From NCBI GenBank assembly GCA_035496295.1, contig DATJET010000199.1:8-64007 (forward strand): a stretch of DNA of 64,000 bases, written 5' to 3'. Below the pieces are notes generated by a model, which saw only the letters and a list, made by a program, of their open reading frames with translations, was not told the DNA's origin and did no database searches. Position 1 is the first letter of the stretch; every line of letters starts with the position of its first letter. Shown one piece after another: positions 19,861 to 22,607 of this stretch. Both the position numbers and the translations under genes were made by a program. This DNA is from Gemmatimonadaceae bacterium. GTDB lineage: Bacteria; Gemmatimonadota; Gemmatimonadetes; Gemmatimonadales; Gemmatimonadaceae.

Positions 19861-21075
19861 TCAACTAACCGCCGACGCCACCCTCGCATCCTCCTGCAGC
19901 GCACTCGCTCGAGACGCGAGCTCCCAGCTAAAAGTACCGGCTTCACCGGGCTCCCGCCCGAAGTGGCCGTACGCGGCGGTCGGATAATAGATAGGCCGCA
20001 GCAACTCGAGATCGCGAATGATTCCATACGGCGTGAGGTCGAACGCCGAAGCGACGCGTGCCTCGAGCTCGGCGCGCGACAGCTCGGAGGTGCCGAACGT
20101 CTCGACCATCACCGAAACGGGTCGAGCTACGCCGATCGCATATGCCACCTGCACCTCGCAACGCTCGGCGAGGCCGGCCGCCACGACGTTCTTGGCAACC
20201 CAGCGAGCCGCGTATGCCGCGGAACGGTCGACCTTTGACGGGTCCTTGCCGCTAAACGCGCCCCCACCGTGACGTGCCGCGCCACCGTATGTGTCGACAA
20301 TGATCTTGCGCCCCGTTAGGCCGGTATCGGTTGCGGGTCCGCCTTCTGAAAAGGCACCGCTCGGGTTCACGAGCACGGTATCACGCCAGCCCGCCGGCAG
20401 CATCCACTCCGGAATGACCGCCGGGATGATCTGCTCGATCACGAACTCGCGAATCACCGGCTGCGTCACCGCTGGCGCATGCTGGGTGGAGACGACGATG
20501 CGCGTCACGTCGGTGGGACGCCCGTCGCGATATCTCACCGAGACCTGTGACTTGGCGTCGGGACGAATCCACCGCGCGTCGCCTGCCTTGCGACGGCGCG
20601 CGAGCTCTTCGACCAGGCCGTGCGCGTACGTGATCGCCGCGGGCATGAGCGAAGGCGTCTCGCGCGTCGCGTAGCCAAACATCAGCCCCTGATCTCCTGC
20701 GCCCTGTTGGTCTGCCGCCGTTTTCTTGTCGACCGCGGAACCGATTTCGGTGGATTGAGGCTGCAGGCGTACGTCGATGCGCGCGCTTGCGTGCCCGAAT
20801 CGCTCATCGAATCCGTCGTATCCCGTGTCGAGAATGACCTGACGCGCCAAGCGTTCGACTTCATCGCGATCCACCGTCGCGGCGCACCGCGTTTCACCGG
20901 CGATGCAAACAAAGTTGTGCGTCACCAGCACTTCACACGCCACGCGGGATTTCGGATCGCGCGAGAGGTGCAGATCGAGAACGGCATCGCTGATGCGATC
21001 GGCGAGCTTGTCCGGATGACCTTCGGACACGGACTCGCTGGAGAACACGAATGAATCGGAACGTGCGGGTGTCAT
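19861..21075 (-). CDS. metK: S-adenosylmethionine synthetase
   Basis: 404 aa from [34 protein letters not shown], with [12 protein letters not shown] and [25 protein letters not shown]. Confidence 0.95.
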
Positions 21076-21114
21076 GAGCTGGCTCCTCGATGTGTGCAAG
21101 GCCGGCCACCGCGC

Positions 21115-21156
21115 ACAAAAACGAATAAGCCCGGTGGGCGGATACCGCCCCCGGGC
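21115..21156 (-). terminator. Intrinsic terminator/attenuator hairpin in the metK leader
   Basis: On the minus strand the RNA reads GCCCGGGGGCGG-UAU-CCGCCC(A)CCGGGC (12 bp with one bulge), followed by UUAUUCGUUUUUGU. It ends 40 nt upstream of the metK ATG. Confidence 0.6.
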
Positions 21157-21180
21157 TGTTTGCACAGATCAGGCGAGCGG

Positions 21181-21227
21181 TTTAGCGGAATTTCTTACGC
21201 GGCCGCAATCGCTTCAAATCGCCGCGG
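21181..21227 (-). ncRNA. SAM-II (SAM-alpha)-like riboswitch aptamer candidate
   Basis: RNA sequence CCGCGGC-GAUUUGAAGCGAUUGCG-GCCGCG-UAAGAAAUUCCGCUAAA. P1 is CGCGGC/GCCGCG around a 17-nt loop carrying GAUUU and AUUGC. The 3' GCUAAA can pair with UUGC to form an H-type pseudoknot. This is the layout of SAM-II aptamers as I recall them, and it sits upstream of metK. Confidence 0.5.
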
Positions 21228-21266
21228 AACTTTGTGCCCGTAAGTTCGCCGGGCTGTCCGGCGCTG

Positions 21267-22607
21267 TCAACGTGTCAATGGAAGTCGCACGTGGAACACG
21301 CTGCCCTGGCCCAGCGCGCTCTCAACACCGATCGATCCGCCCAAAAGCACCAACAATTGACGCGACACGCTGAGGCCCAGTCCGGTGCCACCTGCGCGGC
21401 GCGTGGAGTGCTGTTCGACCTGGCTGAACGGTTCGAAGATGTGATCGAGATGTTCGGCCGCGATGCCGATGCCGGTGTCCCGTACGTCGATCATGAGATC
21501 ATCGCCGGCAGCACGCGCGGACATCGTGACCTGCCCGCGCTCGGTGAACTTGATGGCGTTCGACAGCAGATTCACGAGCACTTGCTGGAGCTTCATGCAG
21601 TCCGTCGTCGTCGACAGGTCCCCGTTGCCGAGCGCCGGGACGGGCTCGACGACTACGGGTAGTGATTTGGCGGTAGCGAGTGGTGCGACCAACGCAGCGG
21701 CAGAGTCGAGAATCGTAGCGACGCGAACGAGCTCGAGCTTGACGCTCTCGCGTCCCGCTTCGAGGCGCGAAAATGTGAGCAGCTCGTCGATTAGAGCGAG
21801 GAGGTGCAACGCACTCGCCTCGATGCGGGACAAGTGCTGCCGTTGCAGCTCCGTGACTGGACCGCTGATCCCGTCGGCCAATAGCTCCTGATAGCCGAGT
21901 ATCGACGTGAGCGGCGTGCGCAGCTCGTGACTCATCACGGCAAGAAAATCACCCTTTGCGCGCATGGCGGACTCGGCTTCGAGGCGAGCGCGCTGCTCGG
22001 CCGAAAACAGACGAGCGCGCTCGAGCGACTGCGCGCACTGCGCGGCAAACGCGAGCAGCATCGCACGTTCTTCCGGTGAGAACGAGCGATCTTCGGGGAA
22101 GTTGAAGCTGACGACGCCGCGCAGACGGCCGCCGAACACCAGCGGAAGTCCGGCATATGCGGCGAGATGCACCTGACCGATGATCGGCGCGACGCGCGGA
22201 TAGTGCTGCGCCCACTCGGAGAATGAATCGAGGAAGACGGGTGCGGCGCTGCGCACGACATCGCCACCCGGCGTTCCCGTGTCGACCGGATATCGCATCC
22301 ACGAGCGAACGAGGTGCTCGGGGTAGCCCATCCAACAGAGGACGCGAAACGTGCGGTCGTCGTCGTCCAGGAGGACGACGTCGCCTGCCGTCGCGCCGAA
22401 GGCGGGCAGCGCCTCGCGCAAGACGACGGCACCGACCTGCTCCTCACTCAGCGTGCTCGAAAGCGCCGCGGTGAGGTGTTGCAGCGTCGCCGCTTGAACG
22501 GCCGCGCGACGAGCGATCGCGAGTAGCTGGACGGGGTCGTCGCTGAACTCGTCCATGACTACCGGGTCAACCCGATCCGATGCCGTGCGCTGCCGTGGTC
22601 CGGTCAC
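21267..22607 (-). CDS. Cytoplasmic GAF-domain sensor histidine kinase
   Basis: N-terminal GAF-like region. HisKA segment FLAVMSHELRTPLTSILGY. HATPase_c segments NLLSNAIKFT, DTGIGI and GGTGLGLS. Confidence 0.85.
   Translation of the reverse strand: MTGPRQRTASDRVDPVVMDEFSDDPVQLLAIARRAAVQAATLQHLTAALSSTLSEEQVGAVVLREALPAFGATAGDVVLLDDDDRTFRVLCWMGYPEHLVRSWMRYPVDTGTPGGDVVRSAAPVFLDSFSEWAQHYPRVAPIIGQVHLAAYAGLPLVFGGRLRGVVSFNFPEDRSFSPEERAMLLAFAAQCAQSLERARLFSAEQRARLEAESAMRAKGDFLAVMSHELRTPLTSILGYQELLADGISGPVTELQRQHLSRIEASALHLLALIDELLTFSRLEAGRESVKLELVRVATILDSAAALVAPLATAKSLPVVVEPVPALGNGDLSTTTDCMKLQQVLVNLLSNAIKFTERGQVTMSARAAGDDLMIDVRDTGIGIAAEHLDHIFEPFSQVEQHSTRRAGGTGLGLSVSRQLLVLLGGSIGVESALGQGSVFHVRLPLTR

Follow-up and report, generated by a model that had tools for sequence, protein, structure and literature searches.

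A SAM-II-class leader followed by a terminator hairpin upstream of a divergent metK in Gemmatimonadaceae

The metK gene of the Gemmatimonadaceae DNA analyzed here (one stretch of 64,000 nt, referred to below as the window) is preceded by a leader that raises the question of whether the gene is controlled by a SAM-sensing riboswitch and, if so, at which step of its expression. The leader lies on the minus strand and fills the 191-nt spacer that separates metK from a histidine kinase gene (21267-22607). The original prediction had proposed a SAM-II-like aptamer coupled to an intrinsic terminator and had considered such coupling unusual, both for this riboswitch class and for the lineage.

On re-reading of the sequence, the conserved motifs, P1 (6 bp) and the loop of 17 nt were located at exactly the positions originally given (Table 1). 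The aptamer is encoded on the same strand as metK, its 3' end being separated from the metK ATG by 105 nt. A strong downstream hairpin had also been described and was indeed found, starting 24 nt downstream of GCUAAA and followed by a U-rich tail, but we counted 13 bp with one bulged A instead of the 12 bp claimed. The GAGGAG motif and the metK ATG were confirmed further 3'. The open reading frame was identified as metK by TIGR01034 (495.7 bits vs a cut-off of 309.4), and in all MetK orthologues the start ATG is situated 10-11 codons before a conserved SESV(S/T)EGHP motif.

Table 1. Features of the metK leader, in window coordinates
Feature	Position	Strand	Basis or remark
Tandem TTGACA hexamers, possible -35 region	21265..21280	(-)	Read from sequence; kept in orthologous leaders
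SAM-II aptamer stem-loop	21198..21226	(-)	RF00521 alignment; P1 covariation across 82 aptamers
P1 5' strand CGCGGC	21226-21221	(-)	Read from sequence
17-nt aptamer loop GAUUUGAAGCGAUUGCG	21220-21204	(-)	Read from sequence
P1 3' strand GCCGCG	21203-21198	(-)	Read from sequence
UAAGAAAUUCC, between P1 3' strand and GCUAAA		(-)	Read from sequence
GCUAAA	21186-21181	(-)	Read from sequence
Pseudoknot P2 3' strand GCUAAACCGCU	21176..21186	(-)	Pairs with loop bases 21205-21213; U21184 and A21183 unpaired
Candidate anti-terminator	21144..21181	(-)	Inferred; MFE of transcription intermediates
Terminator hairpin H1 AGCCCGGGGGCGG-UAU-CCGCCC(A)CCGGGCU	21128..21157	(-)	13 bp, bulged A 21135, loop UAU
U-rich tail UAUUCGUUUUUGU	21115..21127	(-)	6 U in first 9 nt; read from sequence
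GCGCGGUGGCCGG, possible strand of alternative helix H2	21102..21114	(-)	Complements H1 3' arm 21141-21129
Shine-Dalgarno GAGGAG	21088-21083	(-)	Read from sequence
metK start codon ATG	21075-21073	(-)	Read from sequence
metK, 404 aa	19861..21075	(-)	TIGR01034, 495.7 bits

Assignment of the aptamer to the SAM-II class

The whole window was scanned against all 4227 Rfam families, and one match was obtained at the gathering level. It was RF00521 (SAM-II, SAM_alpha) at positions 21161-21235 of the minus strand, covering model positions 1-79 of 79, with an E value of 6.8e-5 when the 64-kb window is taken as the search space and of 9.4e-7 when the whole genome is. The score of 37.6 bits exceeded the gathering score of 36 by just 1.6 bits. 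In a permissive scan of positions 20900-21500, no rival family did better than E = 1.2; the long-loop SAM-II model (RF01726), whose gathering score is 44, reached 17.6 bits, and neither SAM-V (RF01826) nor SAM/SAH (RF01727) was matched up to E = 10. Comparison with the SAM-II and SAM-V models, which had been suggested as a check of the prediction, thus left the SAM-II assignment unrivalled. SAM-II and SAM-V have been treated as one general class (McCown et al. 2017; PMC5473149), and RF01726 and RF01826 share the general fold class of the window element, which differs from them in having a short loop.

Conservation of the structure was assessed in an alignment of 82 distinct aptamers, collected from the Rfam matches in the phylum, the orthologous metK leaders and metagenome matches to a DNA pattern. 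The alignment includes one row from a locus of an unpublished genome (L109, G057), and no conclusion rests on unpublished genomes alone. The P1 and P2 structure was 91.5% paired across the 82 aptamers vs 31-43% when the partner strand was slid by 1-3 columns. Three of the six P1 pairs (89% paired) changed on both sides, e.g., GC:61/CG:18 and CG:43/UA:33, and two of the eight P2 pairs (93% paired) covaried between the long-loop and the short-loop subtypes (GC:53/UA:18; GC:24/AU:13/GU:11/CG:4). Four core P2 pairs were invariant throughout the alignment and uninformative for covariation; in the pattern-selected rows, these four pairs and CCGC had been fixed by the metagenome search pattern. Since the pattern left P1 free, the pattern-selected rows carry no P1 bias, whereas the Rfam-selected rows lean towards P1. 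The covariation that was to be looked for in metK leaders of relatives was found among the 82 related aptamers and not within the metK leaders alone, in which P1, H1 and the anti-terminator (see below) are nearly invariant and so provide no compensatory support.

The blocks GAUUU(G) (21220-21215), UUGC (21208-21205) and GCUAAA are all present in the window and were invariant in the alignment. By the 2QWY structure, these blocks would supply the U carbonyls reading the sulfonium. The structure of the metX SAM-II aptamer was reportedly described by Gilbert and coworkers in 2008.

The window element resembles the RF00521 elements, known from metA of A. tumefaciens (Corbino et al. 2005), in the H-type pseudoknot, the 6-bp P1, the GAUUUG, UUGC and 3' GCUAAA motifs; like them, it is part of a Met/SAM gene leader and has an intrinsic terminator downstream. 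It departs from the Rfam consensus in the distal P2 (GCG/CGC vs GGCC/GGCC) and in a loop shorter by 4 nt, and it is hosted by Gemmatimonadota, not by Proteobacteria or Bacteroidetes. The regulated gene is also different, as metK is absent from the SAM_alpha targets listed for Proteobacteria (PMC4239095). Altogether, the RF00521 score above the gathering level and the covariation of P1 and the pseudoknot in the 82 aptamers uphold the predicted SAM-II aptamer, and we consider the metK leader element a genuine member of the SAM-II class of riboswitches, whose binding of SAM we infer.

SAM-sensing feedback control of SAM synthetase is known for several other riboswitches located before metK, i.e., SAM/SAH, SAM-III/SMK, SAM-VI and SAM-I. 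These represent other folds and families and are mostly translational, and no sequence match to them was found at positions 20900-21500. The SAM/SAH riboswitches of Rhodobacterales deserve attention, as an H-type pseudoknot before metK is precisely their gene context (PMC2864571), and the window aptamer might by analogy sense SAH, or both SAM and SAH. With RF01727 unmatched up to E = 10 and the SAM-II blocks GAUUU, UUGC and GCUAAA intact, we find this very improbable.

The terminator hairpin and its place among SAM-II platforms

Hairpin H1 folds at -27.1 kcal/mol and, in its 53-nt context, at -28.8 kcal/mol (z = -3.2 vs dinucleotide shuffles). It is stable and GC-rich and runs directly into the U-rich tract UAUUCGUUUUUGU, as is characteristic of a terminator; in 11 close relatives, the hairpin is followed by 5-7 U in 9 nt. 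A simple terminator scanner, working by the rule of at least 5 T in 8 bases, did not call H1, which we ascribe to the bulge and the interrupted U run, both falling outside the rule. Twelve more distant metK leaders showed H1 to be 99% paired and revealed no compensatory change, and 7 of 11 pairs were invariant across the orthologues of approximately 70% identity.

Such conservation of the H1 sequence is unusual and could hint at a function of the terminated leader itself (aptamer plus H1, approximately 110 nt) as a riboswitch-derived sRNA acting in trans, similar to RZ and RA of S. meliloti. SAM-II leaders do accumulate as stable sRNAs under high SAM (PMC9373788), but a trans target is not known even in S. 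meliloti, and the alternative pairings of H1 explain its conservation equally well. We regard a trans-acting sRNA as improbable, and such a role would add to the regulation in cis rather than replace it.

The original view that an aptamer coupled to a terminator would be exceptional was not supported by the comparison with other elements. All four SAM-II elements of the window's genome have a hairpin and a U run downstream, as do most of the 30 best-scoring SAM-II matches in the phylum and, with few exceptions, the metagenome relatives and the 72 distinct relatives of the short-loop type, so the arrangement is the rule in this lineage. Published surveys name terminators as the commonest SAM-II platform. 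Barrick and Breaker (2007) described SAM-II as the class most often tied to regulatory terminators, Corbino et al. may likewise be cited against the terminator being an unusual platform, and elements of the terminator type are documented in PMC1273637, PMC2258182 and PMC9373788. One of these is the metZ element of S. meliloti (sRNA RZ), in which the aptamer is directly followed by a Rho-independent terminator and which acts as an OFF switch at high SAM (PMC9373788), as we propose for the window element; it controls metZ, whereas the window element stands before metK. The aptamer-terminator layout is thus an ordinary SAM-II design, met here in a phylum and before a gene for both of which it has been little documented.

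It may also be asked whether the aptamer-like sequence is just a chance or decayed match and whether the hairpin attenuates constitutively or terminates the histidine kinase gene. The RF00521 score is barely over the gathering threshold, and the promoter scanner found no site for the metK leader, including the segment from the stop codon of the kinase gene (21267) to P1. A possible -35 region is provided by the tandem TTGACA hexamers, the second of which overlaps this stop codon; one contig from RNA libraries reaches 21278, upstream of the putative -35. However, the element is kept upstream of every orthologous metK, even when the upstream gene is different, the Rfam-conserved nucleotides are invariant and P1 and P2 covary in the 82 relatives, and the three other SAM-II loci of the genome display the same aptamer-terminator arrangement. 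A spurious or decayed aptamer is, in our opinion, hardly credible.

The contigs in question come from rhizosphere RNA libraries of two studies and bridge the aptamer through H1 into metK (X16, 21007-21278; X18, 20996-21232). DNA carry-over is possible in such material, and gaps, contig ends and depth are not readable as termination or expression. The bridging contigs are weakly compatible with a 5' UTR and prove neither transcription nor RNA ends.

The proposed switch and the translational alternative

A candidate anti-terminator was recognized in which ACCGC-U-C-G-CCUG (21181-21170) pairs with CGGG-G-GCGGU (21153-21144), the helix being capped by CUGU-GCAA-ACAG (21167-21156). The predicted structure has 14 bp and -17.9 kcal/mol, and 2.2% of the shuffles fold as well. 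It represents the MFE of nascent transcripts ending at 21143 and 21140, before the 3' arm of H1 exists. As P2 uses ACCGC for its own distal 3' strand, P2 and the anti-terminator are mutually exclusive. In 11 close relatives, variation of the anti-terminator segment is confined to position N of the GNRA loop (GCAA, GAAA, GUAA), a U-G wobble and a bulged G/A. The P2 tail pairs with a GCGG or GUGG located close to the upper end of the terminator 5' arm in 70 of the 72 distinct relatives, which are related and non-independent sequences; because CCGC was fixed by the search pattern, the informative part of this count is the GCGG conserved in the arm of the terminator. The same 72 relatives carry very different terminator stems. 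Sequestration of the arm was also counted against shuffles (36 of 72 above control), but it was uninformative as a statistic and was not used.

We propose that the SAM-II riboswitch, in all likelihood, feedback-represses metK via premature termination of transcription. Binding of SAM would stabilize the H-type pseudoknot P2 (loop GCGAUUGC with 3' GCUAAACCGC) and lock ACCGC (21181-21177) in it, which would leave the G-rich segment 21153-21144 free to complete the 13-bp H1 and make RNA polymerase terminate in the U-rich tail 21127-21115. When SAM is low, ACCGCUCGCCUG would pair with CGGGGGCGGU as soon as the latter segment is transcribed, and the resulting anti-terminator with its GNRA-hairpin cap would delay H1 and allow read-through into metK. 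At equilibrium, H1 is more stable than the anti-terminator by approximately 9 kcal/mol; hence, the control would have to be kinetic, and both the kinetic control and the anti-terminator are offered as a model.

A different long-range helix, formed in the equilibrium MFE by 21176-21160 and the Shine-Dalgarno region (21099-21082), was rejected. Leaders L150 and L182 break one of its pairs, and L152 alters both sides with loss of complementarity. Instead, the base that varies matches position N of a GNRA tetraloop. The fold of the whole leader was not significant vs shuffles (z = -1.76).

Different wiring is suggested by the sister clades. The aptamer and H1 are retained in eleven sister metK leaders (MetK 71-83% identical), with only 2-5 U in 9 nt after the hairpin, and their downstream CCGGCGGGC complements the 3' arm of H1 (helix H2, 85.6% paired). 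In four sister leaders (L169, L216, L180 and L118), the unconstrained MFE consists of the anti-terminator and H2, and blocking of the P2 strand flips the predicted fold from the anti-terminator to H1. The block lowers the predicted accessibility of the Shine-Dalgarno sequence in L216 (from 0.71 to 0.27), L180 (from 0.46 to 0.11) and L169 (from 0.52 to 0.30), but in L118, the accessibility changes in the opposite direction. The retention of the hairpin without the U tract suggests a translational relay in these clades.

By extension, translation might be the main or an additional step at which the switch acts, by way of a relay of structures that exclude one another (P2/anti-terminator, H1, H2 and a helix masking the Shine-Dalgarno sequence), with the U tail adding termination only in the window clade. 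In the window, 11 of 13 positions of H2 pair, and H2 is 96.7% paired in 11 relatives of the window clade with one compensatory change, C-G to U-A in G188; this single event, reached by 46 of 500 shuffles, gives H2 weak support. The blocked P2 strand raises the predicted accessibility of the Shine-Dalgarno sequence in the window from 0.15 to 0.51. A masking hairpin proposed for the window was no better than shuffles (z = 0.02) and was rejected, and the window clade has a clear U tail. As the prediction for the window runs the wrong way, translational control is ranked as a rival of, or an addition to, termination and appears rather unlikely. Premature termination remains our preferred reading of the metK leader in the window.

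The divergent MetK and the distribution of short-loop SAM-II elements

The window MetK represents a divergent type of methionine adenosyltransferase, approximately 55% identical to the usual MetK of Gemmatimonadaceae. Its nearest public homologue (91% identity) comes from a Gemmatimonadaceae MAG. Of 60 family genomes, five contain an orthologue with more than 70% identity, in each case together with the riboswitch (28.7-42.5 bits). The divergent metK occurs in few genera; no other metK was found in G170, G183 and G040, and in G188 and G195 it sits beside the usual type. We inspected 20 family loci with the usual-type metK, including L128 and L144 of the unpublished genomes G176 and G156, and one Gemmatimonadota locus from another collection (L013), and none of these loci matched a riboswitch among all Rfam families.

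A second copy of the kinase-SAM-II-metK segment was found on contig C222 (9966-38561), colinear over 28.7 kb with C199 (1277-29919), whose coordinates run about 7 bases ahead of the window coordinates. The two contigs share 85-87% nucleotide identity, and such doubling affects no more than about 53 kb of the assembly. The C222 copy is probably derived from a co-binned sister population and not from a duplication.

RF00521 matches were obtained in 107 of 151 sampled Gemmatimonadota genomes and in 31 of 31 from the window's own family; these tallies, like the MetK comparison, include the unpublished genomes G057, G097, G156, G175 and G176. The four matches above the threshold in the window's genome precede metH, an aminotransferase gene and the two metK copies. 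The best-scoring elements in the phylum are located before metH, a homocysteine-methyltransferase/MTHFR fusion gene, metF and a GHMP kinase gene. Among the papers searched, none mentioned SAM-II in connection with Gemmatimonadota.

Two SAM-II loci were noted for their layout. On contig C92 of the window's genome (G000; L002:1499-1832), SAM-II and its terminator are followed by approximately 150 nt without a called gene and then by a second terminator-like hairpin with a T8 run, the aminotransferase gene appearing only after it. In G076 (L086:1513-1846), two SAM-II aptamers are placed on opposite strands approximately 220 nt apart and apparently control divergent genes.

The window aptamer is of the short-loop subtype and lies close to the Rfam detection limit. 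The orthologous metK leaders scored 42.5, 37.7, 36.7, 30.0, 28.8 and 28.7 bits with RF00521, three of them below the threshold of 36. Being at or below this threshold, the short-loop subtype is probably under-called in metagenomes; the curated RF00521 model probably under-detects it.

Further observations were made on metagenome loci. Among 13 loci with the short-loop subtype, 12 had no RF00521 match at the gathering score (L146, L149, L153, L155, L159, L165, L173, L183, L193, L205, L220 and L224). In L159:30-273, L173:1166-1446 and L224:1700-1944, a short-loop SAM-II-type aptamer and terminator stand approximately 100 nt ahead of a SAM-I (S-box) aptamer (RF00162, 62-72 bits), giving a tandem of two SAM classes; an older survey had listed no species with SAM-I as well as SAM-II. 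In L153:770-965 (minus strand), and also in L155, L170, L191 and L193, a second conserved pseudoknot-like element, GCGCUUUGAUUUGG...CUUGGCGG...CCGCCUAAAGCG, occurs after the aptamer and terminator. It gave no Rfam match at the gathering level and may be a tandem SAM-II/V-like variant. The short-loop aptamer and terminator of L205:163-380, as well as those of L202, L207, L212, L213, L221 and L223, are located before small ORFs in which alternating runs of Cys and Met (CMCMCMC, CCC) abound.

The analysis removes a misleading clue, as SAM-II aptamers normally have a terminator behind them, and extends the documented range of SAM-II to most sampled Gemmatimonadota, with metK as its target in a soil Gemmatimonadaceae genome. 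It also provides a compact and testable model in which the 3' strand of the pseudoknot is exchanged with an arm of the terminator. More tentatively, we suggest that the short-loop SAM-II elements with the conserved ACCGC/GCGG strand-exchange module might form a distinct and widespread sub-family largely missed by Rfam, whose cassette would work as a terminator in the window clade and as a U-less translational relay (H1, H2 and masking of the Shine-Dalgarno sequence) in the sister clades, and which in some Gemmatimonadaceae would regulate a divergent MetK that has taken the place of the usual enzyme as sole SAM synthetase. The natural sister variants lacking the U tract make it convenient to compare how a single aptamer is wired to transcription and to translation.
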